A stretch of DNA of 63,861 nucleotides, counting the filler, from Hausera hauseri (lineage: Eukaryota), in the NCBI GenBank assembly GCA_046269625.1. It is 11 parts of 11 records of this genome, joined end to end, with 100 filler letters (N's around TTAATTAATTAA, not from the genome) between each part and the next. Parts side by side here need not be neighbours in the genome. Positions count along the whole stretch, not along the records: positions 32,620 to 41,648 come from JBJURY010481020.1; 10 more parts are not named here. One strand, written 5' to 3'. The notes under the pieces are model-generated. The model was given only the letters and a program-made list of their open reading frames with translations. It had not been told where the DNA came from and searched no databases. The translations under genes were made by a program, and so were the position numbers. Positions 21,100 through 50,500 of the stretch are shown piece by piece. Position 1 is the stretch's first letter. Each line of letters opens with the position of its first letter.

Positions 21100-22880
21100 G
21101 CCGACATGGCGTTCAACGTCATTCTTCCATCGATTTTCTTCGTATGCTTTAAGCATTTTACCAAATGGGGTGATAATTTCAATTAAAATCTTGCAGGAAA
21201 ATCCTGTTAGCGTGAATATTTCGTACCCATTTATAACCGCTTAGATTATTACTTTTACTAATTGTACCAAGAAATAGATTGCTAAAAATCCAGATGAGGC
21301 TTGCCCAAAGATTAAAAATCTTCCGTATATTTTGTAGAGTATTTCTATGGTTACCCGTTGGTAATTGTTCGCACCAAGCAGGGATTCCCATTTAGCCTGG
21401 TAGCGGACATCATCTACTACTGATGCCATAGTTTGGTTTAATTCGTGTGTACGTTGCCGTAGAAAGCGAGAAATTGTCGAAAAGCTTCTCTCTCTGGGCT
21501 TGTAAATACCCTTTTAAGATGTGTCCTGAAATTTGTCATCAGTAATTCCCCTCGCTAAATTAGTTCCAGTTAGTCTCTTGGGGATGAAAATGACACCTCC
21601 ATTAGGTAAGCTAACCCAATCTGTTTCGCTGCGCCTAAACTTTGGTTCACTCAAACGTGCCTTACAATCCTTTAATATTGTAGGTTGTGTTGCGTTGTCT
21701 AGCAACACTGTAGTGAGGGGCATGGATAATCGCGAAGTGTTCTGATAGATCACAGGAAACTCTTGCATACACCGTTTTTCTTCGACATTAATTGGTACGT
21801 CTCTTTTCTCGCACTCGTAAGTCAGTAGGTCCTCGCCAGTAACTTGCCCGAAGATTCCTCCTCTCATGAGAATGATCGGTGAAGCTAACTCAGGGTTTGC
21901 ATAAATAAGGGTTAATTTTGTCCTCATAATTTCCGTATCTAATTTGAAGTCATTAGTTATCATTTTGTGATATAGTTCGGCTATCCCGACTTTTCCTTTA
22001 TAATAAAAATAATAGTCTCGATTTTTCAGATAATCTTTAATACTAATATCTTGCGTTTCCAAGTTGTATGTCGTCGCGTTTATCTTTGTTTCTGCGACGA
22101 AGAAGGCTTCGTAATTAGTGGTGAACATTACTACTTCGCAGAGTGAAATCATTTCCTTTTTTATGAATTGCAATCCACGTTGATCAGATATTAATATCGT
22201 AGGTGCATGGAGCTCTGATACATCTTCACGTGCTGTTAACTGATGTCGGATTTATCTACATATCGTTTTCTGGTAGTTTCTTTAAATGTCATTTCCTTAA
22301 TCTTAAAAAAATTACAGCCTTTTCCGGTGAGCGGTTCCCATGTGACGACAGAACTTCTGAAAGCACAGGTTCCGTCCTGTATGTGACATTTTTGGTTTTC
22401 GGTATACAGCTTAGTAACGCTATGGAAAATTACTTTCTGTACTCGAATTTCCGCTTCGTAAAAGTCCACTACTACTACGTTTGCTCCTAATCCTTTTCCG
22501 GTGTTGTATTCCGCTCCACTACAGTGGCCGTTGTGCATATCTAGCCTTCCGACTACTATTTTGTACGCTCTGATTATCTTTCCGGGCTGAATTTTTAGTT
22601 CCATACTATCCCGTTTCAATCTTCCGATTTCTATGGCCTGCTTGCAGTGTTGTCTTCCTAAATTCATTTGAATGGGAGGAATTGTTGGTTTAATTATTGA
22701 GGAGTGCCCGTGCATTAGTCCACAATGGAAAATGCTACGAGATCGTCTCAGTATACATTCCATGCCATTCAAAGATATCAAATCTTGTTGATGACATAGG
22801 AAATAACTCTTCGTCTTTGTCTCCAGTTTGTGTGGTCTGGCATCTTCACATGCTTCTAAATCCATTAATGAGTATTTTTG
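21100..22880 (-). pseudogene. Chuvirus-type (class III, gB-like) glycoprotein, copy B; signal peptide and N-terminus deleted
   Basis: FHCGLMHGHSSI, GHCSGAEY, QDGTC, ELYHKMI, GQVTGEDLLTYEC, CMQEFPV and the TM GQASSGFLAIYFLVQLVKVII match the chuvirus/Jingchuvirales G motif pattern. Confidence 0.85.
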
Positions 22881-23401
22881 TCTACAATAATAAAAAAGTA
22901 CAATAATACTTTTCTCAGCTCTTCTATCGTATTCGCCATTATGATCTTCTTGACTATTGCGTCCTCAGTTAGGCTACTTTTTGACAGTTTGGACGGAGAA
23001 TTTCTACCTGCTTTAAATATCGCCTTTTCTTTATCATCTAATGTATCTTAGCGAAGACTTGAATTATTTACAACACGTATTAGATTCTTCATTAGCTCGT
23101 GTAACTCTTCATTGTCGGTGCTAAAAGTAGGGATCGACATCTGTCTTAGCTCTCTAATTAATTCTCCGTTATAGTCAACTTCTTCTCGGATCTTCCTAGG
23201 TCTTTCGACCGGGTGTTTAGTCCTTGGGGCTTTGGCTATTATTCCACTTAGTGGATTTAGATCCTTGTTATATTGTTCCTTGTCTTCGTATGTCTGTAAA
23301 TACTCGAAATACATTGCCGCATCTCGTACTCACATGATTTGTCCTACCCACTGTTCCGTTTTAGCCTTCCGCGTGGCTTCTTCTTTTGTTTGTTCATTGG
23401 C

Positions 23402-23620
23402 TAACGTTACTACTATTCGATTTGTTTTGCCGAGGATGATTCCTACGTCTAATAATTGTTCTAAATCGTCAAGTATTCTTCCTCTAAAGGAAAATCTGTA
23501 ATTTAGTTCATTTGTTCAGCCGTTATTTAATAGCCATTCTCTTACGTCCTTCACGTAGGAGTATGTGGTTAGCTCACATTCCGTTTCGTCCATCCACTCA
23601 GATGATATCATTATTTTCAT
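23402..23620 (-). other. Internal ubiquitin-like domain (copy B; one in-frame stop)
   Basis: MKIMISSEWMDETECELTTYSYVKDVREWLLNNG*TNELNYRFSFRGRILDDLEQLLDVGIILGKTNRIVVTL aligns without gaps to ubiquitin residues 1-73. Confidence 0.75.
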
Positions 23621-24289
23621 CGTTACCTCGGGTTTACCCTTCAAGATTTTTGCATAGTTCTTTATTAAAAGTTTCGGCGCTGTGTTGTTAATTATGTTTT
23701 CACTGGATAATTTAGTCAAAGTCGGAATGAGTTGTCTGAGCTTATTTTTAGTTATATTCACATTAATTGATTCTATCAAATCCTTTTCCGTTAACGCTGA
23801 GTCTAGGAGCATCTCCACATTGAATTTCCTGTTCTGCGGATACCTTTCTATTTCATCTAGGTGTACTGGAGTTACCGGATTTTAGGCCGTTATTTTTTCT
23901 AGATAAGCATCCCATTCTAATTCATTCCCAATATCTGGGAGTCCATACTCTACTAGACCTGTGTTCATTCTTTGCACATTTTCTCGAATTTCTTTCAATC
24001 TTGGCTGTATTTCTTTTATCTGCGTAGTTCGGAAACCTATTCCGTTTCCACAGGCATATTGAACCATTTTTAGTAGTTCACCTAATTCATTAGAATTGAT
24101 GAATCCCTTCTGGTGATAATCGGTTAGTTCAACAATTACATCCCTTTGCCATCTTTGTACGAATTCTCGCTTATTTTTGATTTCTGATTNNNNNNNNNNN
24201 NNNNNNNNNNNNNNNNNNNNNNNNNNNNNNNNNTTAATTAATTAANNNNNNNNNNNNNNNNNNNNNNNNNNNNNNNNNNNNNNNNNNNN

Positions 24290-26710
24290 CATCAGTGAAA
24301 GAGGCCTTAAATAGACTCTCAGGAGCAAAATGGTTCACCAGTCTGGACTTATAATCCGGATATTGGCAACTAGAAGTAAAGGACAAAGACCGTTATAAGG
24401 CAGCGTTTAAGACTCACGATGGCGTTTACGAATTTAATATTATGCCGTTTGGTATTATTACCGGACCAGCCATATTTACAAGAATGATGAACAAAATGTT
24501 AATGGGACGGAATCATGCCTCTGCATATTTAGATGATGTGATGATAGCATCGAGAACGGAGGAAGAACACCTAAAGGATATTGAACACACACTGATGAGA
24601 TTGGAACAAGTCGAATTGAAGTTAAATCCGAAGATATGCAAATGGGCTCAAAATGCCGTATCCTACCTTAGCCATATAGTTGGAGAAGGAGGATCGAAAC
24701 CTCATAAATCATTATTGGATAAAATATCAGATTGCATGGAACCACAAAATCAGAAAGAGTTAAGACACTGGTTAGGACTCTGTGGTTATTACGCAAGTTA
24801 TGCACCAGATAATTCAAAGATTAATGCACCTCTATATCGCTTACTTAAAAAAGGAATCAAATTGAAATGGACAGACGTTGAGCAGAGGGCTTTTGAGGAG
24901 ATGAAGAAAATATTAACAAGCGAACCCGTTTTGCGATATCCAGATTCTAGCTTACAGTTTATAATTAAGACAGACGCTAGTAAGGAAGGTATTGGATATG
25001 AATTAGCACAGAAAAGACAGGATGAAGAATTAGAACATCCAATTGCTTATGGAGGACGTTCTTTGAAAAAAGCTGAGAAAAATTATTCTGTTACCAAAGT
25101 AGAACCTCTAGCGGTAAAAGAAGCACTTCGAAATTTTAATGTTTATGTTTACGAGCAGAAAATTATAATCGTCACTGACCACAAGGCCGTTACGACTATA
25201 AAGGGGCAAGCCAATAACCCGACGTGCAGACTAAATAGATGGATTGAAGAAATCTCCAGATACAACATTGAATTCCAGTATAAGTCAGGAAATAAACATG
25301 TAGACGCTGACGCACTATCGAGATTAAAGACTAAGACAAGCACAATCACTGTAATGAAGAAAAGTCAACTTGAGGAAATAATAGACCGCCAACGCGCGTT
25401 AACGATAGATATAGCAATTAAGATTTCAGCAGAACAAAGAAACGATAAAGTTATCCATCAGATTATAGAATTTGCTAAAAAGGATGTCATACCGAAAGGA
25501 CGACAGATAAAGGAACATTTACACAGATATGGACATAAATGTTGCATCATAAACGACGGAAACAAAGAAGACATCCTATATTACGAACGAAAATGAAGAA
25601 AATTGATAGTTATTTCAAAAAGTTTACGAACCGAAGTACTGATGTCAGAACATGATTTATACTTAGCCGGACATATGTCTTGGAAGAAAGAATAGTGAAG
25701 AAAGAATAGTGAACAAATACTTTTGGCCTAGTATCTATATCGATGTAAGAAATTTGGTGAAGGCCTGTGAAGTGTGTGCAACTAAACAGAAAAAGACGAA
25801 AAACTACATGGCTAAATTAAAACCAATCAATGTGCCCGATAGGCCCATGAAAGCTATGTCAATGGATATCGTAGCAGCCCTGCCTACGACCCACAAAATC
25901 AATAAGTATATCTTAACGTGTATTGATCGATTAACTCATTTTGTCGAATTGGTAGCATTGGTTGATCAGAAAGCTGAAACTTTAGCCGAAGCAGTAGTAA
26001 GAAGAATCATTTGTCGTTACGGACCACCTGACCAAATATTAACGGATAGAGGAAGAAATTTTACCAGTGAATTATTCGAGAAAATCACTAAGATATTCGA
26101 AATCGAGAGATTAGCAATTACTGCCTATTATCCTCAATGTAACGGAATGGTCAAACGGATGAATGCTACAGTTATACGTATACTGTGAACAGTAGTGGCT
26201 AAGGATCAAAAGGATTGGGACGAATTTTTAGAAGGAACGCAATTTGCAATTAATACCACGCCACATCCAGCAACAGGATTTACGCCATTTTTTATTATGT
26301 ATGGACGTGAAGCCGTGTTGCCCACGGACTTAGGAATGACGCCATACATAGTTAATTTCAAAGATTTAGAACAGAATTTTGCAGAAGTGTTACAAACACG
26401 ATTGCAAAGGTGTTGGGGAATTGCCAAAAAACTATCTCAAGAATATCAAGAACAATTTAAGAAGCAATATGATAAGAAAGCGAAACAGCATAATATAGAA
26501 CAAGGAAATTGGGTTTATGTACATTATTTGGTAGCCAAAAAGGCACCTCACTAAAATTGACTCGTACGTATAGAGGACCGTACAAAGTTACAAAGGTTAC
26601 GCCAACTACAGTATATATTAACAAAAATGGAAAAGAAGAAGTTATGTCAATACAGAGAGTTGTCAAGACAGAAATACGACCCAGCAAACGTTATAATTTA
26701 CGCCAACGTG
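24290..26710 (+). mobile_element. Ty3/Gypsy pol (RT-RNase H-integrase), degenerate
   Basis: MPFGI, AYLDDV, KTDASKEGIG, TDHKAV, HVDADALSR, HHCC zinc finger, MDIV, LTDRGRNF, QCNGMVKR, GPY motif (YRGPYKV) and terminal RYNLR. Confidence 0.93.
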
Positions 26711-28155
26711 AAGTAAAAACTTCGTCGATAGTTACTAGACCAATATCATACGTTCAGATAGTCTTAGCATTATCGTTGATTGCCTCTTACCTCCCAAGAA
26801 CACAAGCCCAATGGTGGCACGATGAATCGTCGTTAGGAGACATATACGGACTTCGGAAGAGTGGATCAAAACCGGAAACTACCAAGACGGAAAAGGAGCC
26901 AACAGCTGAAGAAGTTTAAAAACGAGAATACACTAAATTACTGCAATCAATGACAATTCATTACTATTCAGCAAACTCCGTATGTGTGGGATTTAAAGCT
27001 TGGAAACTGCACCACGATTTCGGACGATTTCTAATTGTTTTACTTGACACAACCACAAGAGGAACAAAAAATTGCGATTTTGAACCTGGAGAAAATACGC
27101 AGTGTTGCGATATAGACTTCGGACACACTTATAACCTCACATACCGTCTATACTTGCCAGACTCAACTGAAGTTTATGTTGAAGTGAAACCACATTCTCA
27201 ATTAGTCATTCCTGCATGGAACAGACATAAAGGAGTAAAACTGAATGAAATATTACGATCCACTGACCCAGAGATAAGAATACTAGACGAAAATATTCAG
27301 AAAATCTCCGTGAATAAGAATAAACGATGCATTTAAGTAGACGCTAGAACAGGATTAACGTTCAGTCAGGAAATTAGTATCACGTTTGAAGCAACAGTTG
27401 GACCGACGCCAAATATAGAATATTGTTCTATTCGAGCAGGCGTGCAAAACCATGCTGTAAAATACCCGTAAACTGAGAATTCAAAATAAGATTTGACTTA
27501 TATGAAGTACGGCCGAATAAACCGAGTATACAGTTGAGAACTTACTACCCAGAAAATAGAATTTGGGAAATTCCAGTAACGACGACCACCAGAAGACCAG
27601 CTACCCAAATTAGTACCATTACGTCAATCATTGCATCAGCCAGTGTGCCTAAAAGAGAATTAGGAAGTATCCCTATTAAATATTCGGCATATCAGTCTAA
27701 GATCGTGTTCTCCGTGGAAGAAAAACAAAATTACGATATATACATAAATTGTCGGACAACGTATAACGAGCAAGTGGTGACGCTATTTAATGGTACTTAC
27801 CAAACAGAGTGAAAATCTGTTAAAACCAAAAACAAAGTATATAGTACAATTGTGTGCCGAAAACAAACAAAATCAGACTGTTACATTGCAAACTTTAGAC
27901 GAGATTTGTGCAGAATCCCATGTATACGAAGATGTAGATGAGCAAATCACAACTCCGATCATTACACACGCCCCAATGGGATTAACTACACTACCAATTA
28001 TATCCATCTCCATACTGTCAACATTTGTTCTCATTATACTAATTGCGATTTTTCGGATAGTTACCAAAAACTGCTATTCTAAGCGTGCTAAAAACTCAGA
28101 ATGAGAATTAAGGGAACTGGAAACCTCTGTTGATCCGTATGATAATATAACCTGA
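26711..28155 (+). pseudogene. Post-integrase type I membrane protein: signal peptide, two Cys-containing repeats, Thr-rich linker, FN3-like domain, TM, YxxI tail
   Basis: In frame with the integrase C-terminus in ORF 26509-26919. SP IVLALSLIASYLPRTQA; repeats ending NTQCCDIDFGHTYNL and (frameshift-corrected) CCKIPVNxEFKIRFD; FN3 hallmark LKPKTKYIVQLCAEN; TM IISISILSTFVLIILIAIF; tail YDNI. Confidence 0.65.
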
Positions 28156-28720
28156 CAACTACAGAGCGGGTTATTCTATCATCTAACAAATAATTGGTTT
28201 AATTTTAAAACCATCGTTTGTCGTAAGATTAACCCTTACTGTTTATTTTTCAGACTGATGAGTAAAGAAAGAAACATGAAACCGGATACCGGANNNNNNN
28301 NNNNNNNNNNNNNNNNNNNNNNNNNNNNNNNNNNNNNTTAATTAATTAANNNNNNNNNNNNNNNNNNNNNNNNNNNNNNNNNNNNNNNNNNNNAAGATCA
28401 TGCTGATGGACGGAAGAAGAAGTTATTTAATAGCACATTTCCAGAACTGCGAATATGTGCATACGAATGTTGTAAATTGGTGCCTATACCAAAGAACATT
28501 ACATGTATTTATCGTGAACATTGTTCACATTGTGCTTATAAAAAGTGTTTAGCGTTATGTCAAGGTAATATTGTTACTAAGTAAATGTGTGCTATGAAAT
28601 TAGTTGGTCTTAACCTATACAGTAGTTACTTAGTTTGACTTGGCCTTATCCTATATCCCACATTACTTGATCAAGAAAACAATACTATATTTCTATACAA
28701 TATTTATTAACAATAACTAT

Positions 28721-31665
28721 TTACAATGTTACATGTCTGTGAGGTAGTGTATGGATTCCATCGCTCAGGATCTGCCTCTTATCATCCATCCAATCTAAAC
28801 TTTTCTTATGCAGAGGTACTGTTTGGATGTTATGATTTATAGACAGCATCCTTCTCATTTCCGATATGATGTGAGTCTGCTCATACAGAACTCTCGCATA
28901 GTCCTCAAAACGGATCTTCTTGGCCAATGTAGTCCTTTGAACGTCCTTAGCTCTCTTTTTGATCTGACCACATACGTCTAGGGAATACAATTTGGACCTG
29001 AGAGCCACAAGTCTCGGGATGATTGCCTCATTTATCTCGTCTTTGAATTTCCCTATGACTTTCATATTGGCAATTGAATATTTGGGATGCTCCTTCGGAT
29101 AGTCCGATGTATCCATGTGTTCAGCCAATTTGGCAAAGTCCTCATAAATATCCTCAGTATGGATTTGATAGATGAAACTATCAGTATCCATGTACATCAG
29201 CTGTATGGACTTGAATGTGGGGACCATGATGTCGTAGTGGAAATTGTACATTAGGGTCTTTGATAGTTCCAATATTGCCATACCCACATATGTGTTTGTT
29301 GAATACCAATGCTGTTTTCAGCATATGGATTCCTACCAAGTTCTCCGTATATGTTGAGTTCCTGTGAAAATTGGGCTTGGCAATGAGCTTTTTTGCCTGC
29401 TTCCAATCACATACCAGCTCGATGTTGATCCTATTGCGGATATTCTCCATGGCCTTGCCAAAACGCTGTTATATAGTTTTAATTGGTCTTTCTCAAAGTC
29501 GTTCTTGGCATTAGTCCGCAGCTTTGTATTGAGATCTATGTATGACTGCAGCCACATGGACTGGTTGAACTGCAGGGCTCTATGGATCTTAGTAATGTGG
29601 AGTCTATGTCTAACTGCCTGCTGGAGATTGATGTAGTGGACTACATACCTCTCCCTATTACCCAGATGACAGCAGCATTATCTGCTTTCCATAGGACGGA
29701 GGCCTGCTCTCAGGGAGGAAAGGCAGCTGTTGATGCCTTGAGTGGATAGAAGCCGAATATTCCATATCTATCTCCAGTATGTATCCCGTATCTCCAGTGG
29801 GATCCAGGTCCAATACAGGGATGTTTTCAGGATTCTCGACCCATTTGAAGTTATCACATGTCAATGGGGCGCTCATTACCCATCCATAAAGGTTGTTGGC
29901 ATCCAGGTATGATATATATATGAGGATTCCTTGGATGGATCACACTGGGCCATATACTTGTTATTGGCCTCACTATACCGGTGAATGGCCTGGCATATTC
30001 CGCCTATAACGCCTCTCTCGATCATAAGGATCATATCATAATCCTTAATGATCTGCAGCCTAATACCAGTATACCTCAGCATTGCTGCCCAACTCCTTCC
30101 TGGAGCCGTAAAGAAATGAGCTGGATCCAAAGTATAGCATTGCTTACATATTTCTGTTTCCCATGATATTTCGTAATTTTTGATCTGACTAGACGCTTAA
30201 AGTTCTTGATCCAAACATGTTTCTTTTCTCCATCGACTAGTAGGAGCAGATCCCTATGATCTTCCAATTCAGCATCACATCTGCAGGGAATAGAATTTGT
30301 CCTCATCATCCAATCCAATTATGTTAATGGATATATTGTTGATTCCACTGAACTTCTTTACTTCATCTATGGATGGTGAGAACTTAATACATTGGAAGTC
30401 ATAGTTGTGCTTCAGATCATTATATAGCCAAACTCGATCTGCTTAATGTTTTTGATCCCGTACGAGTTTATATAAAATGACATACATGAAACAAATGTTG
30501 TGATTATTATGGACATTGACACATACTTTTTTATTAGAGATCCATTCCGGAAGCTGAATATATGAACTACCCTGCGTGGGAGAGTACTTGTGCACATGCA
30601 CAAGCAATCTCTTGATGGTTTCCAGAGTCCATCCATTCTTCTTATCCTGACTCTCCTCAGCTTCACGGATCAGCTTTACGTGCTCTTTATGCAGTCATGC
30701 TACTATATTGGCCTTTTCCAGTATGGACTTATTTTCGGTCCTGAAGGCACTATTGGATTCTTTGGCATCTACACTGATGTATGTGGCCTCCAATTTCATA
30801 TAAACCTTTAGGGCCTTGAGCTTAGCTATGTTGTCCTGGAGAATTCCCTGCGTTTCTTCCTTTGTATATTCCAGGAACTCCTTGATGATTGTTTGGTCAG
30901 TTGCATTAGTAACATATCTGCGGCATTTTCTCTTTAATGCTGGCGCATCAACTGGCTGCTCTCTTTGACTTTTTGTTGCAGCCGCTGCGCGTGATGGGCT
31001 TGATACGCCTTATGGGTCTGATGCGCATGATGTAGCTGCGCGTTTCAATTCTCTAAAAAGTTTCTCAGCTGCTGCACCAGATCGTGCAGCCTAATGCGAG
31101 GCAGAATAGTGCGAAGCAGATGCATCAATATTATGTTGCTCATTATAGATGGCCTCCTTGGACTTTGATGCGAAGTGACTCAAATGATGTTTGAGATTAT
31201 AATAGTACTGTATGTCATCTGCACCTCGTACAGTTTCGCATCCCGGACATATATGATATTGAATATTTTTGGATTTGTATCCATAATGCCGCTGCATCGT
31301 TTCATGACTCTGTTACGGCTTATGTGCATTGGATTTGCAATAAGCATAGGAACCGCACATCTGATTTGCTTTTAGGACAATTATTGTCATTGGCATATTA
31401 TTGTTGAATATTTCTTTCTTCGATCTTGTGAACGAATCCAAATGCTGTTTATGTTGGTTGTAAAATTTCTCGTAACCGGTCCGGCACGCTACCTCACATA
31501 CATGACATACATAGTATTGAATCTTATTGTGCTGGTATAAAAAATAATTCTGCATCACACTGTGGCAATTCTGTTTCTCGTGTTCCTGCGCCATACGAAA
31601 TTGGTAGAAGTTGCAAATCTAAACAAATCAATTATTTGAGGAGCAGAAATAACGAAACTCACCAT
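28721..31665 (-). pseudogene. Maverick/Polinton pPolB gene with N-terminal Cys/His modules and a large internal deletion
   Basis: Motif A YLDANNLYGW (~29880-29910), motif B KLYNSV, motif C YMDTDS, then IGKFKDE, ALRSKLY and DDKRQIL. ATG at 31663-31665 followed by a 44-nt intron; AATAAA just after the stop (~28703). Confidence 0.92.
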
Positions 31666-32619
31666 TCTTTGAAGTGCATTGGGAAATAATGAAATATGTA
31701 GCAATGTCAACGTGCACCGACTCGTTTATGGATTTTTTCGAACATTCTAGAACACTTTGTTTTAACGCATCATTTACATAAACTTGTTTACATTGTGCAC
31801 TTGACTTGTCAATGTTGTGCATAGATGTACCAAAATTTGTTTCAATGCATCAAATGCATAAATTTCTCAGCGCCAAATTTAAAATTTCATCAAGGTTTTC
31901 ATATATGGGATATCTATTGAGCTCGTCAGGTTCTTTGAACAACGTACACTTTATCGATTTTTTGAGTTCGGATCGATAATTATTCAATTTCGATTAAGGT
32001 ACTCGAATATCTAATACCAGATTCAGATTCACCATATGTTGTTTCCTATATACATGCACTATTAGATTTGTTGATTTCAGTCTGCTTCACCTCCAATTTC
32101 TCTGTCAAATGTGCAATCGAAATAAGCACCATTTAATTACTTGGTATTTTTATGTACTTTTTACTTGTAATTAAACCTTGTTTTACTACACCGCGGTACG
32201 TTGCACCACGCCGATATTGATTGCCCTATAAATTTGCCCGAATGTAGTATTTATTAAATCTATCAGATTCTCCAAATAATGCATGTCTGACCGAGTTTTC
32301 GAGTTCTAATAGATAAATATTCGACTTGGAAGCTAGAATTCGAATATCTAACGCCATATTCCGATTGACCATGTATACCTTCCTATCCAGACCCGCTATT
32401 AGATTTATTGATTTCTGCTTCACTGGGCTTCAAATGAACATTTTGCTTAATTCGAAATATTGATTTTGTATCTGCATAGCATATTTCCATGGAATAGTTT
32501 TTATGCATTGGAGGGGGGGNNNNNNNNNNNNNNNNNNNNNNNNNNNNNNNNNNNNNNNNNNNNTTAATTAATTAANNNNNNNNNNNNNNNNNNNNNNNNN
32601 NNNNNNNNNNNNNNNNNNN

Positions 32620-33673
32620 TTTTCGTCATTGGAACCAGGTTTCTTTTTTAGTGGAATGGTTAGTCTTAAGGTTTTTGCTCTACCTATGTCGTCTTCATTT
32701 TGGGCGATGATTGACTTATATTTGCATAGTAATTAGTAAAGTTGACAATATGCTTCTGGAGAAAAATTTGTTTCTACATGAAGCGGAAATTCAGCATATT
32801 TGTATGGTTTTTCTTCTATTGTTATTGCCGATACTTTATAAGTATGACTCAAGGTAGTATTGGCGTACAACTTTACGGGGGTTGGTGCATTATTTACTAA
32901 TCTGATTGGTACTCTTCCTGCCGTTACTCTTATCAAAATGTTACTAAGTATGATATTTGGATTAACGTGCTCTTGTGGCTCAAAATATACCGGCTGGTCA
33001 TCCTCTTCGCGGACTTAAGCATAAATTAGCATTTCGGTTCTAGGCGGAATATTTTCATCGACCAGAATCCATACTTCTTCTTGCTTTCTTTCTTTCATTA
33101 TTTTAATCCTTTCACTGGTCCAAGTTCAAGTAGTTTCTCAGTCTGTAAATTTATTGCGATATTGGGTAATTGCTTCAGTATATCGCAACCTAACTCTACA
33201 TCATCAGTTAACTAATTCATTATGGCAAACTCGTGTCGAAGGATTTGACCGATTAATTGAACTAGAGAACTCCATTTAAACTTTGGTTTGGATTCTTTCC
33301 CAAAAGCTCCTATGCTGCCTGGATCCGACGATGATGCTGGCTGTAGTTGTTTTCGTAGTGTCGGTGGTATTGATTCTAATTTTATAAATGATTTCTCTGA
33401 TGCTGTGTCGATTAAGGCATAGACTTCCTAATCTTCAATGGTAACTTTTGTGAAAGGTCTTCCTTCCATAACTGACCCATAACAACTAGACACGTCTTTT
33501 GGTCGTTTAATCGAAGAAATCTTATATGCGTTTATCGTTATCTCTGGTGATGAAATAATATTTTCGGTCAGCTGTTTCAGTTCTTCGTTAGGGTATAAGT
33601 CGTTAACTGCCATGAAATTCGTATTGTTTCTAATTAATGGTTCTTGTACTATTGGATTTTGGAACGATTTCAC
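32620..33673 (-). pseudogene. Aspartic protease and pre-RT region of pol (copy A)
   Basis: RPFTKVTIEDxEVYALIDTAS, then VxLGCDILKQLPNIAINL, RVPIRLVNN and KYKSIIAQNEDDIG. Confidence 0.85.
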
Positions 33674-33949
33674 TCCTTGTTTCCCCCGACTGTCGATCTT
33701 GTTTCTATATTGCGAGCTATTCTCGGTGAGTACAATATCCCGTGGTCGTTCGTCGCTCGTCGTTGATTAGTGATTTGCATTTTCTTTAATACTCCATATT
33801 GTTTTGTTCCTTCATAAGGATCCTCATAGCTGAAAGGTTTCTGACAGAATGCCGATCTATGATACCATAGATGTTTTGTCACAATCTTCGTATATCGGAG
33901 CCGTTGATGGCATAATGGGTAAGGGTGCTCTAATTACTGAATACATTCT

Positions 33950-35955
33950 GCCTATTTTGCCCGAGGATTGCTTCTCCTCCATTAAGCTCGTCATCGTCTG
34001 AATTATTTCTTCGCGTCATTGGTTTCTTAACCTTGCGTTTCAGTCGAAATATGGGTCTTGCTCGACGTTTGTAATTATAGTAGCCGACATGGCGTTCAAC
34101 GTCATTTTTCCATTTATTTTCTTCTCATGCTTTAAGCATTTTGCCAAACGGTGTGATAATTGCGGTTAAGATCTTACAAGAAAATCCTGTTAGCGTAAAT
34201 ATTTCATACCCATTTATAACCGCTTGAATTACCGCCTTTACTAGTTGTACCATGAAATAGATTGCTAAGAATCCAGATGCAGCTTGTCCAAAAATTAAAA
34301 ATCTTCCTCATATTTTGTAGAGTATTTTTGTGGTTACCCGCTGGTAATGGTTCGCACCAAGCAAGGATTCTCATTTAGCCTGATATCGGGTGTCTTCTAC
34401 TATTGATGCCATAGCTCGGTTTAATTCGTGTGTTCGTTGTCGTGGAAAAGCGAAAAATTGTCGAAAAGCTTCGATCTCTTTTGGTCTGTAAATGCCCTTT
34501 TGAGATATATCCTGGAACTTGTCGTCGATAATTCCTTTTGCTAAATTAGTTCCAGTTAGTTTTTTAGGTATAATAGTGACACCTCCATTGGGTAAGATAA
34601 CCCAATCCGTTTCTCTACGCCTAAACATTGATTCAGCCAAACTTGCCTTACAATTTTTTAAAATGGTTGCTTGTGTCGCATTATCGAGCAGCACTCTAGT
34701 GAGAGGCATGGCTAGACGTGGAGTATTCCGGTAGATCACAGGAAGCTCTTGTATGCATTGTTTTTCTTCGACATTAATAGGTACGTCTCTTTTCTCGCAC
34801 TCGTATGTCAGTAGAACTTCACCAGTAACCCGACCAAAAATTCCTTCTCTCATGGGAATGATCGGTGAGGCTAACTCCTGATTCGCATAAATAAGAGCTA
34901 ATTTTGTCCTCATAATTTCCGTATCTAATTTGCAGTCATTAGTTATCATTTTATGGTATAGTTCAGCTATTCCGACTTGTCCTTTATAATAAAAATAATC
35001 GTCTCGGTTTTTCAGATAGTCTTCGATTCGAATGTCTTGCGTTTCTAAATTGTACGTTTTTGCGTTTATCTCCGTTTCTGCTACGAAGAACGCTTCGTAG
35101 TTAGTGGTGAACATTACTACTCCGTAACGTGAAATCATTTCCTTTTTATGAATTTCAATCCATGTTGATCAGAGATTAATATCGCAGGTGTATGATGTTC
35201 TGATACGTCTTCACGTGCTCTTGAACTGATGTCGGATTTATGTACGTATCGTTTCCCGGTAGTTTCATTGAATTTCAGTTCTTTAATCTTAATAAAATTA
35301 CAGGCTTTTCCCGTGGGCGGTTCCCATATGGCGACAGAACTTCTGAAGGCACAAGTTCCGTCTTGTATGTGACATTTTTGATTCTCAGTATATAGCTTAA
35401 TGACACTGTGGAACATTACTTTTTGGATTCGCATCTCTGATTCGTAAAAGTCTACTACTACTACGTTTGCTTCCAGTCCTTTTCCGGTATGGTATTCCGT
35501 TCCACTACAGTGCCCGTTATGCATATCTAGCCTTCCGGCTACTATCTTATACGCTCTGATTATCTTTCCGGGTTGCATTTCTAATTCCATTCTATCCCAT
35601 TTCAGTCTTCCGGTTTCTCGGGCTTGCTTACAATGTTGTCTTTCCAAATTCATTGGAATTGGAGGGGTTGTTGGTTTGATTATTGAAGAATGTCCGTGCA
35701 TCAGTCCACAATGGAAGATGCTACGAGATCTTCTCAGCATACATTCCATACCATCCAAAGATATCAACTCTTATTGTTGGTATAGAAAATAGCTCTTCTC
35801 TTTTGTTTCCAGTTTATGTGGTCTGATATCTTCACATGCTTCTAAGTCCATTAATGAATATTTTTGTCCAAGTTTGAATCTACCACAATCGTAAACAGTA
35901 ACCGCACCAATCTGTTTTATTAGCGTCATTATGGTGAGTAAGCTGACTAACCAAT
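33950..35955 (-). pseudogene. Chuvirus-type (class III, gB-like) glycoprotein, copy A, with internal signal peptide
   Basis: WLVSLLTIMTLIKQIGA|VTVYDCG..SLMDLEAC, FHCGLMHGHSSI, GHCSGTEY, LYHKMITNDCKL, GRVTGEVLLTYEC, CIQELPV, KGIYRPKEIEAFRQFFAFPRQR, TM, then INGYEIFTLTGFS. The order and spacing of these motifs match chuvirus G and Pao-captured chuvirus env. Confidence 0.88.
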
Positions 35956-38900
35956 TTGATTCGTTCTTCCGGTTGTTATTATCCGTTGTCGTCAGGTTCC
36001 GTATGACGTCTTCGAGTCTATTGTTATTTCTCTTATCTTCCTTGTCAAACAATTTTGGCCAATTTACTTCACACCGAAGTTCCCTAGATGCTTTTCGCGC
36101 CAAACTCGTAACTTGATTTAGTTCATTTTCTCGATTTGGATGTCTTGATTGCTAAGTACAATAATATCTTTCTTAGCTCTTCTACCGTATTCTCGACCAT
36201 AATCTTCTCAACTATTGCGTCGTCAGTTAGGCTACTTTTTGACAGTTTGAAGCGCGAGCTCCTCATCGTTCTAGCTGCGTTAAATATCGCCTTTTCTTTA
36301 TCATCCAAAGTATATCCGCGGAGACTCGAATAATTTACGATACGTATTAAAATTTTCATTAACTCGTTTAATTCTTCATTATCTGTACTAAAAGTAGGAA
36401 TCGACATCTGTCTTAACTCTCTAATCAGTTCTCCATTATAGTCGATTTCTCGGGGCTTCCTAGGCCTGCCAATTGGGCATTTTGGTCTTGGAGCATTGGC
36501 TGGCATTCCACTTAGCGGTACTAGATTCTTGTCGTATTGTTCTTTGTTTTCATCCGTTTGTAAATACTTGAAATACATTGCCGCATCTCGTACTCCCATA
36601 ATTGGTCCTACGCATTGTTCCGTTTTAGCTTTACGCGTAGCTTATTTCGTCTGTTCATTAGTTATTGTTACTACTATTCGATTTGTTTCGCCGGGGATGA
36701 TTCCGACGTCTTAACTGTTCTAAATCATCGAGTATTCTTCCTCTAAAGTAGAATCTGTAATTTATCTCGTTTTTTTGGCATTATTTAATAACCATTCTCT
36801 TATGTCCTTTACGTAGGAATAAGTAGTTAGCTCACATTCCTTTTCTTCCATCCAGTCAGATGATATCATTATTTTCATCGTCACCTCAGGTTTATCCTTC
36901 AAGATTTTTGCATACTTCTTTATTAAAAGTTTTGGCACCGTGCTGTAAATTGTGTTTTCACTGGACAATTTGGTTAGAGTCGGAATAAGTTGTTTGAGCT
37001 TACTTTCAGTCATATACACGTTAATTAATTCCATCAAGTCCTTCTCAGTTAACGCTGAATCTAAGAGCATCTCTACATTGAATTTCCTATTCTGCGGATA
37101 CATTTGTATTTCCCCTAGGCGTACTGGAGTTACCGGATTTTCGGCCGTTATTTCTTCTAAATAAGCATCCCATTCTGGTTCGTTCCCCATATCTGGAAGT
37201 CCATAGTCTACTAAAGCTGTGTTCGTCCTTTGCACATTTTCTCGAATTTCGCAATTTTGGTTGTATTTCTTTCATCTGTGTAGTTCGGCATCCTATTCCG
37301 TTTTCACAGGCATATTGAATCATTTTCAGTAATTCGCCTAATTCATTAGAATCGATGAATCCCTTTGGTGATAATCAGTTAGTTCAATAATTACATCTCT
37401 GCCATCTTTGCACAAATTCTCGTTCATTTTTGATCTCTGACTCATAAAAGCATTTGTTCAGATAAACTTCAAGCTCTTTTGTTAGTTCATCCAACCTTGT
37501 TGCTCTTTGTTTTGTTTTAATACATGTTTCTACTTTCTGTATCTTGGGCATCAATTGTCTCATCCTCTCATCACTAATCTCCGCCATTTCTATCAATACG
37601 TAGGCTTACTCGTACATCTCATTTATAGTTTTTGAGTCAGAGTCCATTGCATCCGACAATTTCTTCACGATCTTGTGTTCCTGAAAGCTAAAATGTGGGT
37701 CATCTTTTATTTTTGTCAACCTAGTATGAAAATTCTGATCTGATCCGGCCATCCATTCTTGTGGTTTATGCAAGAATTTTATTGCGTCCGTTAACATGGT
37801 TCGATGTTCCGGACAGATATCTAAGATTTCAATATCTTGGGAAGAGATCTTATCGATTGGTTTTTCCGTTAAGTATTGGATTCCTTCTAGTCGAGCAACC
37901 TTCAACTTTGAGTTTACATCGTAAATCATGTTCCGTTTTTCCGTGAAGCTCGTCTCTTCGATCAAGTTATAGATCTCCTCCAATATCGACGTTTCTTGTT
38001 CTCTTCATAAATTTTAGTCGTCGTAATGCTTCGAATTGAGTGCGGATGTCTATTTCTATTCGTATTGTGCCTATATCATGTGCACTTTCTGCTAGCTGCT
38101 TCTTTACCATTGGCTCGCTTTGCGGAAATTCTTTTTTACGGTCTTCTACTAGTTTACTTAATCTTGTTATTAGTTCGGACTATTCTGACAATTGATTAGC
38201 GATTATTGGTTTCGCCATTATAGCCTTATCTAACATCTTATATGCATCTTTTAACCATCGTACGGCCCTCTTAGGAAATTCATAATTCGACCGACATAAC
38301 TAAACTCGTTTTTATATTCGTCAAATTCTATAATACAAGCCTTTATTATATATTTAGTTTCTTTATTATTTATAAACATAATTCGATTTCTTAAACTGTT
38401 GAGCTGTGACCTTTTTTCATTTTTCATTTTGATGCGGCTCTCTAAGTCCGCACATCGTCGGTTTTCGACAAAGGCAATTTTTATCATCTCCATTAAAGGA
38501 GGAATATCTATCAGATCTACACCCAATATCTCTAAATCGATACTACTTCGATCGCTAACCGGTTTTTCCCTAAGCCGATTAATCATTGCACAGCGAATTT
38601 CATCCTTTATACGTTCTAAATTACGGGCTACTCTCTTCAGTTTTGGGTTTGCTTCTAAGGTAGACAGTAGCGTTTGAGCCTTAGTAACTTTCACATCAAT
38701 ACTATCTTTGTTTTTACTCCATCCTGAAAATTCTACTCCGCTTTTAATCCACGACTCTAATTCGTGGTTCCATTTTATCAACGTATCTCGTGGCACCTCT
38801 TCCGGTTGTCTTATTGCAATTGCTTCATCGAGTTTCCCTTCACTCCACAATCTTAAACTTTTGTATAATTTCTCCGCAAATTATTGTTCCTTACCAGATA

Positions 38901-39477
38901 TATCTGTTTGTTTACTAATCTGCTTGAGCCTTTCTAAATTGTGTCTGAGTATCTCTGGATTGTGACATTTAACTCTCATCCTCTTTAATTCGTCAGCATT
39001 TTTCCGTGAACGTCGAACTTTCCATTTTCTCGCATCAGGATCATTATTATTGTCCGTTTCTTCCTCATTGGCGGGAAGCGGACAAACTTCGTCTTTCGTC
39101 ATTAACATTTATCATCTCGGGTGTCTCCAACACTTCTGGAATCCCTATAGGCGTAATAGAAATCTCAGGGCAAGTCATCTCTTAGGATAGCAGTGTGGAA
39201 ATCTCTTTTCTTCTGTATCCCTTTTAATGGGAGATCGTGAACGAGTCTTAGATTTTCTCTTAGGCGATGGGCTTCTACCTCTATTCTTCATTATCTTGAG
39301 AACTAATGGTCCGATAAATTCACTTTCGACTTCATCCATTATTTCGTCTGGATTATGCGTTTCGGCTTCTATTTCTGCATCTAATTCTATATTTTGAGAT
39401 GTTGATGGTTTCTCCGACTGAGCTATTCCTTGCGGAACAGACTTTTTACGTGCCATATTAGTATTATTTGGAGCCAA
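35956..39477 (-). pseudogene. ~1100-aa accessory region of unknown function (RS-rich N-terminus, charged helical repeats, UBL domain at ~36660-36878)
   Basis: The ORFs starting at 39477, 39108, 38850, 37983, 37596 and 37323 all share one frame with the Gag knuckle (39771). The 3' half is conserved in copy B. Confidence 0.7.
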
Positions 39478-39648
39478 TGCCCATTCTTTTTCAGTCTGGT
39501 TTTCTTAATCCATGATAAACTTCCGTTAATCGTAATTTCTTTCATATTCTTTTCTAGCGTTCATGACTTGGGGATTAGTAGTTTCACTTAGATTTCTTAC
39601 CGATCTGCGTAAATCTTGCATTTCAATAATCAGGCTTATATCTCCTCA

Positions 39649-40955
39649 TTTACCATAGATGGCTTCTAAGTTATTTTTGATCATACTTGTTTTGTTCGGT
39701 TCGGTAAATGTGACACTTCTAGGATTTGGACATGACCTAGCGATGTGTCCTTCTTTTCCACATGTAAAGCATATTAAATTCCCATTCCGGCCGATCCTTT
39801 GTCGACCATCTTCATTTACAGGCGATTTCGCTCTGTTTGTATTCTTATTCTAGCTCTGTAGCATTTATTTATTCTCTCCGTCATATCTATTATCCTTATA
39901 TTTATTATTAGGTCAGTAACCACCTTGGTTCCTATCTGAATTGTAACTCGATTTACTATACGAATTATTTCGATTATTACTAAAATTTCTGTCGTTTCTT
40001 TGATTTCTATTTTGGACATTTCTATTATCGAAACCTCGATTTCGGTTATTATCATTAAATCGTCTGTTATCTTGATTATTATTTCTATTTCGATTATTGC
40101 GGTCATTATTCCTTTCATATTTGTCGCCTTGATGTGCTTATCTCTAATGCCATTTTTAAGTCTTGGGCTAATTGTAACGTCTTTTCAAAATTATCGGGTC
40201 TAGCCAGAATTAACTGCTTAACTAAATCTCTTGACCATATGCCATTTATTAACTGAGTTGATATCATGACGCCTAAGTCTAGCGGTGTTGCCTTTTCTGC
40301 AGCATCACGTTCTGCGTCTGTCTTAGCTTTTACTACGTTAGCTATTCTCAAGATACTTATAACTATTAGCAAGTTGCTTTAATGCAAATGCAAACTGGGT
40401 AACCGATTCACCCTTTTGTTGCACCCTATTCTGTAATGCCATAAGTTTCTGTTGTGGCGTTACTGTCGGCAATAATTTACGGTTTAATGCTCCTACCAGG
40501 GAGGACCAAGATTTCTTTTCGTCATTAGTGAGCTCGCTATAAGCATAAGCGGTTAAATTTTTCGAATACAACGGCAAACGTTTAATCATCACTTCAGGAG
40601 TAAGACTAGTACCTTCTGCGTGCAAGTTATAAGTTCTCAAGATTTTATTTAACCCGTCCGGATCACCATCGTATGCCGGCAGGTTCAGAGAGTCAAAGAT
40701 AAAGATGTCCAGTTTTTGCGCCACTGGTAGGTTATCTGCAACCATATTAGTCTCAAAATTTACTTTATTAGCTCTAGGTTCCGCAAGAGGGATTTTAAAC
40801 TTATTGGTTTGCTCAACAGCGGTTAAATCTGTATTAACTGAATTTACTCTAGTGTCAGATAGTGAGCGTTTATCTAACTTTTTACTATCTCTATATATAT
40901 TTCTACGCATCTGGCGTATAGGCGAGTTTTCTGTGGCGTTTGAATCAAGGTTCAC
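39649..40955 (-). pseudogene. gag: Gypsy Gag with N/R-rich linker and CCHC zinc knuckle
   Basis: LPAYDGDPD, W..L..AL, RVQQKGESVTQFAFALKQL; knuckle CFTCGKEGHIARSC at 39730-39771. Confidence 0.88.
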
Positions 40956-41127
40956 TTTTAACCTATCAATATTTGTTCTCGAAAGAATTTTACTTTAAAC
41001 CATGTTCAACTTATAACCCGAAATTTAAAACTTTCAAACTATATTCAAATACTTGATGTGGGGCGTTGATCGCCGGTATGTCGTTAATTAGCTTTAAGCT
41101 GAAGTAAGTCTAGCGAGGCACTGATCT

Positions 41128-41145
41128 GTACTGCTAGGGTCGCCA
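41128..41145 (-). promoter_or_regulatory. Primer-binding site, probably tRNA-Arg
   Basis: TGGCGACCCTAGCAG lies 2 nt after the LTR-terminal CA; TGGCGACC is typical of Arg-primed Gypsy elements. Confidence 0.75.
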
Positions 41146-41147
41146 AA

Positions 41148-41648
41148 TGTTATATATTGGGGTGGCCCTTATACAACCCCCACTATATAACAATAATTAC
41201 ACTTGAGATTTGAGTACCTTAATGCAGGTAAGGTCTACCGTTATCGAATAGACAAATTGTGCCTTATAACAATTAGTTTAATCAGTAATGCTGGTACTCG
41301 CTTGCGGTCCTGTGCAAAGTGGTTAATAAGATTCTCCTCTTAACTATGTAATTTTACAGTGGAATTTTAGACCTTAGTGTAGTCAAATCACCCTTAAGGG
41401 GCAAAGAAAAACTATAGAAGAATTTTAGAATAACAATATATTTTTACAATAACAACAATTACGTCTTCTTGGATACGTCTCTGTTATCGGAATTGAATAT
41501 CAAATCAACTGGTTCAAGGATCTGTTTTCGCAAACAAAAATAATTCTCCACACTTTAGAAATGTTCTGGAACGCTTCTCCAAATGCTTTTCAAATAATTT
41601 TCGAAACTCTCAAAAACTTCGAATCAACTTCAAATAACTCACAAAACT
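41148..41648 (-). repeat. 5' LTR (partial) of the env-bearing Gypsy element
   Basis: Ends in ...TATAACA adjacent to the PBS, is non-coding, and runs to the contig end. Confidence 0.7.
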
Positions 41649-46594: not shown

Positions 46595-46666
46595 ACTTAA
46601 TGTAAAGTCGACAGGATATGGGAACGATATGTTTCCCACCTAGACTGAAAGTGAGGGAAAAAACCC

Positions 46667-47566
46667 ATGATATTAAGATCAAAGAAACAATTAAATTTTG
46701 TTGATCGACCACCACAGACTGACGAAAAAGAAAGTAAGACTTTACCAAAACTTGAACTTTCGAATCACAAGTATTTAAATATGGCGGCTGCACAGAACAT
46801 CAGTTTTTCAGACGAAAATTCGACGATCTCTATTATTAATTTACTAAAATTCCTCGAAAAGGATTTTGAAGAAAATACGACTGATGCTTTGAAAATAAAA
46901 TCTTTTGTTAAAGTACTAGCAGGCGACGCTTTGACGTTTTATTTTGAGGAGTGCGTCGAGATGAATAATTGGTCGGAGTTAAAGGCGAAATTTATGAATA
47001 AATTCAAACCCAGTCTTCCGAGTTATAAAAACTTTTCTGAACTTAAATTTACAACTAAAGAACATTTCAGTGAATATGTCAAAATGAAAACTAAAATAGG
47101 GAAAGACTTAGGATTGCGTGAAGAACTCATAATAGATGCTCTTAATGATGGGTTACCGAGTTGTTATAAAAATTTGCTCATTGCTCAGAATTTTTCCACC
47201 TTAGATGTGTGGCAGAAAGCGGCAAATAAAGTCATTCTGGAAGTGATGCCTGAAAAACCAGAAAAAATTGTTGAAAAAATGGACTTTAGACCTAGAGAAT
47301 TCTCCTCGCAGAAGAAATATTCCAGATTCCAAACTCCGAATTATACTCAAGATTCTTACTTTTCACCCCAATATTTTCCAAGAACACAACACTTTACTCC
47401 ACGTTTTTATCGACCACCTGCAATGCAACCGGTATATCAATATAGAAGTTATCCGGATAGACAATATCCATACCGCCCTCCGAATAATACCTGGAGAAAT
47501 CCAACTCCCAGTGCTGAATTTTCACAAACTGACTTGAACAATATTAAAAACGAACAAAATGCGTGA
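46667..47566 (+). CDS. gag: Gypsy Gag (intact, no CCHC knuckle)
   Basis: LAGDALTFY...WSELKAKFMNKF...EYVKMK...IIDALNDGLP retrotransposon capsid pattern; lies directly after the LTR/PBS. Confidence 0.85.
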   Translation: MILRSKKQLNFVDRPPQTDEKESKTLPKLELSNHKYLNMAAAQNISFSDENSTISIINLLKFLEKDFEENTTDALKIKSFVKVLAGDALTFYFEECVEMNNWSELKAKFMNKFKPSLPSYKNFSELKFTTKEHFSEYVKMKTKIGKDLGLREELIIDALNDGLPSCYKNLLIAQNFSTLDVWQKAANKVILEVMPEKPEKIVEKMDFRPREFSSQKKYSRFQTPNYTQDSYFSPQYFPRTQHFTPRFYRPPAMQPVYQYRSYPDRQYPYRPPNNTWRNPTPSAEFSQTDLNNIKNEQNA

Positions 47567-50500
47567 AATTTTATAAAAACTGTGGCCTTTTTAGGCGAAA
47601 CAAATTCGAAAGAAGTAAATGTGAACTTACCTGTGATTCTAGACACAGCCAGCAATGCCTCTATCATTGGGATTAATACATTAAATAAATTAAAGGATTC
47701 AAGTAAGTTAGAGGTATGTTCAACTCCTTCTAAAAATGTTAACCTTCGTGGATTGGCTGGAGGGGTGAGTATTTTTTGTTTTCTCAATATATCTGTTAAA
47801 ATTGGCAAAGTGGTTAAATTTATTAAAGTGCATGTTGTACCTTTTCCCCTTCCTCATATGATATTAAGTCTAGAACATATTAAATTATTCAAATTAAGAA
47901 TAAATTTTCAAAATTTTCAGGTGTATCAATTTAAACATAATATTACTTTGAAAAGAAATCTAAACAGTGCCACTTTTAATAACTATATTGATAACCACAA
48001 TATTGTTAATAATTATACTGATATTATTGATTTTTATGAACATTCTTATAACAGTAATCCAAATAATTTTGATGAATCCAATGTATATGTTTTCCCTAAT
48101 AATGACTTTGAAAATGAGTATACTAATAATCTAAATGGAGAGTTATATGATAATAATATTGATTCAAATGGAGATGTTAATGAAAATAGTTATAGTATTG
48201 ACCCAAATGAAAATTTTTATGAAAATGAGTACAATATTAATTCAAATGAAAGATTTTGTAATGATAATAGAAATGATGTATTTTATAATGATGAACAAAC
48301 TAATTATGATGGACCTAATGTGTATTATTTTCCTCCTAATGAGCAAACTGACTTTCCTCCACAAAATTCTTTTGAAGATTCCTTACCTATTTATGATATT
48401 CAAAATTCAAAACATAATTGTGATGAAATTCAGTATGTTCAAGAGGATCCATATAATGTTGATCAATATATTTATGATATAAGCCATTGTGATGATATAA
48501 ATGAATATTATGGAAATCATTACCATAATCCTGATATAAATATTAATTATAATGCATATTATGGATATAGTGATGAACTTATGTTCAATGAAGATAAATG
48601 GAACTCAAACGAATATATTAAAACTCAATTTCACTATAAGAATTATCCTAAAGACTATTTTCAAACTTCTAACTATAATGACTATAATACCAGAAGAAAA
48701 AGATATAAGAATTATTATTATTTGAATAATAGAAATTCTAGGAATTCCCATTCTACTAAAAATTATCATTCTAAATATAATATAAGAAAGAATACCTGGA
48801 CTAATCAGAATTATGTCAAAAAACATCATAACAATTCCTATAAAAACAATCATATACTATGTTACAGTAATTATTATAATGATCCGAGAGTAAATACTTC
48901 CAATGATTACAGTAATTATTGTGATAAAAGACAACAGGTGTATGTACCAATTCCAACATCCTATAATGCTCCTACATGTAAGAGAGATCAGATACAACCA
49001 AACTTAAATCAGAATGTTAATGACCCTACTTATAATCAAAATATTGAACTTTGTGAATCTATTAAAGAGCCTAAATTAAGAAAATTAGTTCGAAAACACA
49101 TTAACGTATTTGCAAAAAATAAATTTGACATAGGTACTTTAAATGTAAAAATACCTCCAATTAAGTTAACTTCTGACGCTCCAGTTGTCTGTAGGCCATA
49201 CAGGGCAAGTCCAAAAGATGAAATGGAAATAAAAACACAATTAGACGCTATGCTAGCCCATGATATCATAGCCCCCTCTTGTAGTAATTATGCAGCCCCT
49301 GTAACTATGGTTTATAAGAAAGATGAGAAAGCTAAAACAAGATTTTGTATTGATTATAGAAAATTTAATAATGTTGTCCAAAATGATTCAGAACCCCTTC
49401 CTCGAATAGACTCAGTATTAGATAAATTGCAAGGAGCCAGATACTTTTCCACTTTTGACTTAGCGTCGGGATACTGGCACATTAAGCTTAATGAAGAGGA
49501 CTCTTCCAAACTTGCTTTTACTACTAATCATGGACTTTTTGAACCAAAAAGATTACCATTTGGGTACCGAAATTCCCCTGCTCTGTTCCAACGGGCCTTA
49601 AAACATATTTTAAACAAATATAATGTGATCTATGCTCTTAATTATTTCGACGATATAATCATCTATTCCCAAAATTATGAAGAACACCTTGAACATTTAA
49701 ATAACTTCTTTCAAATATGCCATTCTGAGAACATTAAACTTAAGCTTTCCAAATCCCAATTGGCAACTAACAAAATAAAATTTTTGGGATATGAAATCAC
49801 TGAAGGAACATGCACCCCAGCTAATGCTAATATTGAAGTCATACAAAAATTGATCCCACCAAAAAATGTTAAAGAGTTACAAAGATTTTTAGGCAGTATT
49901 AATGTATATCACAAATTTATTCAAAATTATGCTAAAATAAGAGCCCCCCTCAATAAGTTGCTTAAGAAAAACATTTCATGGAATTGGACAAAAGAGTGCC
50001 AAGATGCCTTTCAAAATTTAAAAGAAACCTTGATCTCAAAACCCATCTTATCATTGTTTAACCCACAATACCCATGTCATATGTTTGTCGATGCTAGCCA
50101 AATTGCAATAGGATGTGTTTTAAAACAAACCCAACCTGATGGTACAATGCTCCCAATTGCATACTATTCAAGACAATTAAAGAGCTATGAAAAAAATTAT
50201 GCTATCACCGAACTTGAATGTTTAGCAATTGTCGATTCAGTAGACAAATTTCATTGTTATGTTCATGGGAATCAGTTCACTGTACACACAGACCATGCTG
50301 CATTAGTATGGCTCAAGAAAATAAAAAACCCCACTGGAAGACTCTTTAGATGGTCACTAAAACTTTCAATGTATGATATGAATATCCAATATAAAAAAGG
50401 AACCACTAATGTTGAAGCTGATATGCTAAGCAGAAACCCAATATGCTATTATCTTAATATACTTCCTCAATTACCTTTATTAGATGTAACAGAAATACAA

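Follow-up and report, generated by a model that had tools for sequence, protein, structure and literature searches.

The window analysed here is a 63,861-nucleotide stretch of DNA deposited as Hausera hauseri (GCA_046269625.1), made up of 11 individual contigs with N spacers between them. One whole contig in it, JBJURY010481020.1 at positions 32620-41648, is called copy A below. With a probability of about 0.75 it is read as a decayed copy of a multi-copy Ty3/Gypsy element, likely from a triclad, in which a gB-like glycoprotein (G) lies between Gag and Pol. Gag, a long accessory region (X), G and Pol were likely encoded together in a single polyprotein, predicted to have been threaded through the membrane of the endoplasmic reticulum (ER).

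A fusogen between Gag and protease

On the minus strand of copy A, to which all its coordinates refer, a primer binding site (PBS) is followed by Gag with a CCHC knuckle, X, a signal-like segment, G, a membrane span, a tail, a protease (PR) and the region preceding reverse transcriptase (RT). An earlier note on this DNA had given this order, and it is borne out by the Pfam matches found in sequence along the contig. These are a weak match to Retrotrans_gag (E 0.016), zf-CCHC (E 2e-6), PF24664 (Monjiviricetes_fusion) in two frames (E 7e-19 for profile positions 6-227 and E 3e-43 for positions 274-602), and the RVP protease (E 2e-4, above the curated cut-off). The ectodomain of G, of class III (gB-like) according to PF24664, is found at 34310-35902 and is disrupted by a frame change near 35147 and several stops, while the retropepsin-type aspartic protease is found at 33167-33466. 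Copy A itself thus has the Gag with capsid and CCHC nucleocapsid and the retropepsin protease of a Ty3/Gypsy element. The note's further claim, that this is a Ty3/Gypsy-type element with G between Gag and protease, is supported by the order of the Pfam matches and by the relatives.

The C-terminal half of G was used as query in a full HMMER scan, which gave 470 proteins with E values no higher than 0.001; those ranking highest are long proteins. Fifteen of these, 13 of them from the near clade, were scanned for domains. An aspartic protease follows G in the same protein in 11 of the 13 near-clade relatives (below the curated cut-off in P0018). RT is also present in five of the 13, integrase (IN) in four, and a Gag or knuckle match before G in three; P0016 and P0025 end shortly past the membrane span. 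P0026 carries knuckle, G, PR, RT, RNase H (RH) and IN within 2,146 amino acids, about 600 residues separate the knuckle from G in P0017, and P0167 is a 4,844-residue protein with G, PR, RT, RH and IN as well as ankyrin repeats. In these relatives the glycoprotein and the enzymes are encoded by one open reading frame (ORF). The best match in PDB to a profile of the relatives is Ty3 Gag-Pol (E 6e-54). Several proteins among P0011, P0013, P0017, P0019, and P0167 display two to four aspartic-protease-like repeats after G. P0010 is an animal retroelement polyprotein deposited under a Flavobacteriaceae metagenome bin, and is probably host DNA binned in error.

A tree was made from halves of 38 glycoproteins, 37 HMMER matches and copy A. 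Copy A groups with 14 polyprotein-embedded relatives at a support of 100/99, on a long branch, and the 23 glycoproteins outside this clade are stand-alone or otherwise fused, one of them being a named chuvirus G. Since copy A falls in a clade of polyprotein-embedded glycoproteins, the tree indicates that G is an old resident of such env-first elements and no fresh capture from a chuvirus. A recent capture is ruled out by this tree, in which the named chuvirus G makes up a single stand-alone row.

The fold of G was approached through P0016, which is 30% and 44% identical to the two G halves of copy A. An AlphaFold model of P0016 based on 97 sequences reached a predicted local distance difference test score (pLDDT) of 83, and all 40 Foldseek matches listed for it were herpesvirus gB (best E 3e-13). 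As the model matches herpesvirus gB, the G of the env-first family is, judged by the predicted fold of this relative, a class III fusogen. The earlier note had asked whether G would match class III fusogens, and it does so both by the PF24664 match of copy A and by the model of P0016.

The host was deduced from a neighbouring contig, which assumes that the joined contigs come from one source. A Na/H exchanger 8 frame there is 81% identical to Schmidtea mediterranea and at most 68% identical to the other 119 matches listed. This gene being so much closer to Schmidtea than to the other matches listed, the host of copy A is likely to be a triclad flatworm (planarian). The exchanger-like sequence (18113-19206, minus strand) lies in two overlapping frames with no visible introns and is perhaps a retrocopy.

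Reading frame and selection in the element family

A second copy, copy B, is found at 19689-24189 on the minus strand. It is recognized by PF24664, aligns to 32677-37442 of copy A with 86% nucleotide identity, and comprises sequence from the end part of X, G, the span, the tail, the protease and the pre-RT region. According to the earlier note copy B displays the same order as copy A. This holds for the portion from the X end to pre-RT, but the order is repeated only in part, since both Gag and the stretch holding the X end and the signal-like segment are missing there.

Copy A has about 19 frame changes, as judged from a reading of its three frames, and many stops. The breaks include those between Gag, the knuckle, X and G, and no single frame is therefore visible in it. 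In copy B one frame extends from the middle of G to past the protease with six stops in 785 codons, compared to 70 and 65 stops in the other frames, the exception being a single short compensated shift. The tail or linker between span and protease (33467-34145) has frame changes near 33949, 33860, and 33680 in copy A, and is in a single frame in copy B. Three copy B stops listed in the earlier note (TAA at 21241-21243, TGA near 21030, and TGA at 20698-20700) are real and all lie in one frame, and this frame contains further stops at 21516, 20151, and 20028. The last of these is common to copy A (33017). Other family contigs, however, lack it. The aligned blocks of the two copies contain 17 stops on their best frame, and one of these is common to both.

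The ratio of nonsynonymous to synonymous substitution (dN/dS) between copies A and B is 0.20 for X (421 codons), 0.15 for G and the span (629 codons), and 0.19 for the tail, protease and spacer (417 codons). X, G and the protease of copy A have evolved under purifying selection.

The family was further surveyed by aligning the contigs of two public runs, X1 and X2, to copy A; X1 may be the source sample. There were 28,172 family contigs from X1 and 2,003 from X2, and all 30 bins of copy A were covered. At about 17 of the 19 frame breaks of copy A, either copy B or other family contigs differ from it in length, and this applies to the breaks between Gag and the knuckle, between the knuckle and X, within X, and between X and G. 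About 99% of the contig depth lacks the stop that follows the knuckle, and likewise the one that copies A and B have in common. Given the dN/dS values, the frame of copy B and the length differences in the family contigs, the frame breaks of copy A are regarded as lesions. Copy A itself cannot make the polyprotein, while the element family, as far as can be judged from its sequences, most likely encoded one long ORF.

Membrane topology and competing explanations

The topology was assessed by hydropathy, on a rough scale, for copy A and its relatives. A signal-like segment at 35903-35953, with a hydropathy peak of 1.8, lies just ahead of the conserved Y-D-C start of G, and the Pfam match begins here. 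There is no Met upstream of the segment in its frame in copy A. A hydrophobic segment precedes a conserved motif of small residues and Y/F-D-C in 11 of 15 relatives, and two of the four relatives missing it lack that part of the protein or fall below the threshold. Two hydrophobic stretches follow the ectodomain (34146-34301 in copy A). The first is the better span in copy A and in 11 of 11 correctly anchored relatives, while the second scores poorly, is probably amphipathic, and is followed by a basic stretch. Such a basic stretch is found after the span region in most relatives, one relative being unanchored and one mis-anchored. A flavivirus-like topology plausibly fits the hydrophobic pattern of 14 relatives.

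In the proposed mechanism Gag and X would be made in the cytosol, and the internal hydrophobic segment would direct the G ectodomain into the ER lumen. Signal peptidase might then cut at the conserved small-residue motif before Y-D-C, and a single span past the ectodomain would bring the chain back to the cytosol. Protease, RT, and integrase would stay tethered to the G tail until the element's own protease releases them. Capsid, enzymes and fusogen would in this way be produced in equal numbers and brought together at one membrane, and the outcome might be enveloped particles able to move between cells.

Several observations weigh against reading copy A as the remains of such an element. Its own signal-like segment is below the threshold and its span weak on the rough scale used, and it shows no open frame. 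The contig ends just before RT and contains neither RT nor RNase H nor integrase; the placement among Gypsy elements therefore leans on the relatives. The host assignment leans on a single gene located on another contig. The inferred frame changes near 39500 and 39185 have no row among the indels listed (12 of 71 and 12 of 37), nor do the stops at 39915, 39867, and 37608 among the substitutions listed (40 of 2,171 and 40 of 781). The length difference at the X/G break is found in 14 X1 and two X2 contigs, only 18% of the depth, a value similar to the 15-17% at three breaks that are absent from copy B. Finally, X and G are skipped in one contig of low depth, in which 39596 is joined to 34088.

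That contig, together with the fact that the repeat family is found on short contigs, is what speaks for X and G being either a nested insertion, whether of another transposon or of an endogenous viral element, or a chimera of the assembly, within an ordinary gag-pol element. We regard this as very improbable. The junction of G with the protease is common to two independent contigs, the contigs from X1 and X2 cover all bins of copy A, and of the 15 joints listed, out of 154, none is backed by more than one contig. Moreover, the base composition is the same in gag, X, G, and PR, and the open frames of relatives show the same order. The family contig coverage, the base composition and the order in the relatives largely refute a nested insertion or chimera.

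It might also be that there is one genomic ORF, but that Gag and G are mainly made from spliced or recoded messages, the full polyprotein being a minor route to Pol and the threading incidental. A one-to-one ratio of Gag to Pol, as full read-through would give, is unusual among retroelements. Spliced messages are also known from Cer1, a nematode Gypsy element (PMC10309623). On the other hand, copy A lacks a Met before the signal-like segment in its frame, and the in-frame fusion has been retained across relatives that are just 25-35% identical, which indicates selection on read-through of the whole frame. This explanation is considered unlikely. We find it slightly less likely still that G no longer serves cell entry, and that it acts either as an anchor for assembly at internal membranes or in the fusion of cells with one another, while the element moves only intracellularly. 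The entry mechanism of the gB-carrying errantiviruses is stated to be unknown, and herpesvirus gB needs partner glycoproteins (PMC13524379, Discussion), which would be in keeping with such a role. However, purifying selection has acted on the entire ectodomain (dN/dS 0.15), and a relative retains the full gB-like fold. A single polyprotein that would place its fusogen in the ER lumen is the preferred reading.

Five relatives extend past integrase. All of them (P0010, P0011, P0027, P0165, and P0167) have there an in-frame second signal-like segment, a region of 240-400 residues, and a C-terminal span, together a predicted second membrane protein. These regions do not align mutually, and the one in P0165 has an Ig_3 match and no usable match in the Atlas. 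Since gB-type fusogens usually need partners, and since it is stated to be unknown how these elements enter cells, the post-integrase unit is a candidate attachment protein. The env-first elements might, rather tentatively, be two-glycoprotein elements whose one polyprotein passes through the membrane twice, with a conserved gB-type fusogen before Pol and a fast-changing type I attachment partner after integrase, to which the family of copy A would add a cytosolic cassette of 1,250 residues with a ubiquitin-like domain. The pattern is seen in the relatives, the contig of copy A having no 3' half. No description of a post-integrase unit or of the membrane topology was found in the literature searched; the figures and sequence files of PMC13524379 may include the family of copy A or show the post-integrase region. 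The membrane protein of the relatives is a candidate for this missing partner that can be put to the test.

Known systems, accessory parts and neighbouring contigs

The layout with a glycoprotein between Gag and Pol, a retroviral design that the earlier note did not recognise, has already been published, both for the Burro elements (PMC6431247) and for the GAG-ENV-POL errantiviruses (PMC13524379). The prior description which the note had named as removing the novelty does therefore exist. Burro (Burro/GYPSM1) was described in 2019 as giant Gypsy-like elements of planarians with env in frame between gag and pol, 25-30 kb long and with an ORF of about 4,900 residues. The env is mononegavirus-like, a ubiquitin/SUMO-like motif precedes it, there are two or three knuckles, and BCL2-like, MATH, BIR, and ankyrin accessory domains are found; decayed copies are reported in Dugesia japonica (PMC6431247). 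The family of copy A shares with Burro the order of Gag-CCHC, a long accessory stretch, env, PR, a spacer in the dUTPase position and RT, the very high number of copies, and the likely host group. The location of env in frame between gag and pol, direct in the relatives, is also likely for the family of copy A. Burro has a dUTPase-like domain, while the spacer of copy A is homologous to that of the relatives and has no Pfam match. As copy A has only one knuckle, and none of the Bcl-2, MATH, BIR, and ankyrin domains of Burro were detected in its X, it is not filed as Burro proper.

Chary and Hayashi (2026) reported GAG-ENV-POL errantiviruses of the gB type from Nematoda, Bryozoa, and Platyhelminthes, among them six in Schmidtea (Smed_errantivirus_1-6) with up to 215 copies (PMC13524379). 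The element studied here displays the features of this group that were tested, with env between gag and pol and a gB-type ectodomain flanked by a signal and a span, the latter two by hydropathy in copy A. The Smed env rows in supplement 2 of that paper resemble, by eye, the closest relatives found. The Smed elements are intact and young, while copy A is decayed, as is also seen from the 86% identity between copies A and B. Six 8-residue Smed motifs gave no exact matches among the retrieved proteins, and identity of copy A with any listed Smed element is therefore not shown. No discussion of a single polyprotein, of topology or of a long accessory region was found in the part of PMC13524379 that was available. 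With copy A the env-before-pol errantiviruses gain one more family, which is abundant, likely planarian, and has a large accessory region of its own. The design is of interest since the making, cutting and packaging of a fusogen embedded between Gag and Pol are not shown in the literature searched.

Nematode retroviruses attributed to Sacco et al. are said to have a single continuous gag-env-pro-pol ORF with an RNA-virus-like glycoprotein. Nematode endogenous retroviruses in which env and pol are flipped in order are referred to in PMC13524379 (citing Sacco et al., 2022); this order is found also in copy A, but the hosts of those non-canonical retroviruses are nematodes. In Roo, Tas, and Cer-7, which are BEL/Pao elements, the envelope is located downstream of the polyprotein (PMC7642597). 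The BEL/Pao element Anakin has a chuvirus glycoprotein and thus has its glycoprotein family in common with copy A, but copy A has no BEL/Pao domains and its G is upstream of PR. The stand-alone and BEL/Pao-type glycoproteins fall in another clade of the G tree than copy A.

Region X (35960-39720) comprises about 1,250 codons, somewhat more than the approximately 1100 residues first suggested, and most of it looks helical and charged by eye. No match to X was found in Pfam or among PDB sequences, and no similarity was detectable between X and what precedes env in 13 relatives. Homologues were found neither in a search of longer proteins (4,064 candidates) nor, as confirmed cases, among 115 pattern matches in metagenome contigs. 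One open stretch of X gave only weak matches to unnamed or dynein-like proteins in the Atlas, where recognition is low. The stretch at about 36896-36660 resembles segments of P0017 and P0025 picked by eye. Among 28 windows of X it scored best with a profile of these two proteins, at 5% probability, and when a three-sequence profile was used 18 of the 21 PDB matches at E up to 10 were ubiquitin-like (best E 0.018). A model of the stretch (pLDDT 52) has the beta-beta-alpha-beta-beta-alpha-beta order of the ubiquitin fold and no Foldseek match, and single-sequence, Pfam and fold searches for a ubiquitin-like domain in X were negative. There is accordingly a weak hint of a ubiquitin-like domain here, in the same place as the ubiquitin/SUMO-like motif of Burro. 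A Bcl-2-like domain at the end of X found no support in the comparison with the relatives or in the window-profile search. Searches for Bcl-2, MATH, BIR, and ankyrin domains in pieces of X detected none, at the low sensitivity obtained with broken single sequences. A Bcl-2-like helical stretch is located just before the G signal in P0016 (Pfam Bcl-2, E 0.001) and, by eye, in P0012 and P0025, as it is in Burro.

Upstream of X, Gag is found at 39720-40991 with a capsid-like region at 40529-40359, an N/R-rich linker and the CCHC knuckle at 39771-39724, and it is disrupted by frame changes near 40358 and 40140. It matches by blastp the Gag of env-first relatives (the P0009 family and P0018, E 2.5e-7 to 1.6e-5). 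A PBS-like motif at 41128-41145 begins with TGG at 41145, behind a CA end two bases away. The non-coding 5' region at 41148-41648 is covered by many family contigs and is probably the 3' part of the 5' long terminal repeat (LTR), a status deduced from position since no second LTR copy is found within the stretch; nor are there tRNA genes. At the other end, 32620-33100 contains a post-protease spacer in the dUTPase-like position and the pre-RT region up to the contig end. The PR-RT spacer of P0011 matches this region by tblastn (E 1.7e-9).

Two other decayed Gypsy pol contigs (24290-28293 and 54740-59681, plus strand) are sisters in an RT tree (96/96). Both display the same post-integrase pattern as the relatives, with hydrophobic segments near 26743 and 27997 in the former and near 57936 and 59186 in the latter, and each may be the 3' half of an env-first family. 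A tie of either to copy A was not upheld, the RT tree being unresolved and no LTR-like DNA being in common. A further decayed Gypsy pol is located at 11211-15150 on the minus strand. Three decayed contigs (1-5630, 28394-32519, and 59782-63861) are mutually related and 70-80% identical. The frame at 28721-29317 has no Pfam match, and by eye it resembles a Polinton-type DNA polymerase. A fragment at 54006-54639 (plus strand) looks by eye like a mariner-like transposase. Finally, 46655-52357 on the plus strand holds a nearly intact env-less Gypsy element, with gag and a pol of 1,596 residues in which protease and RT are separated by a long N/Y-rich insert.

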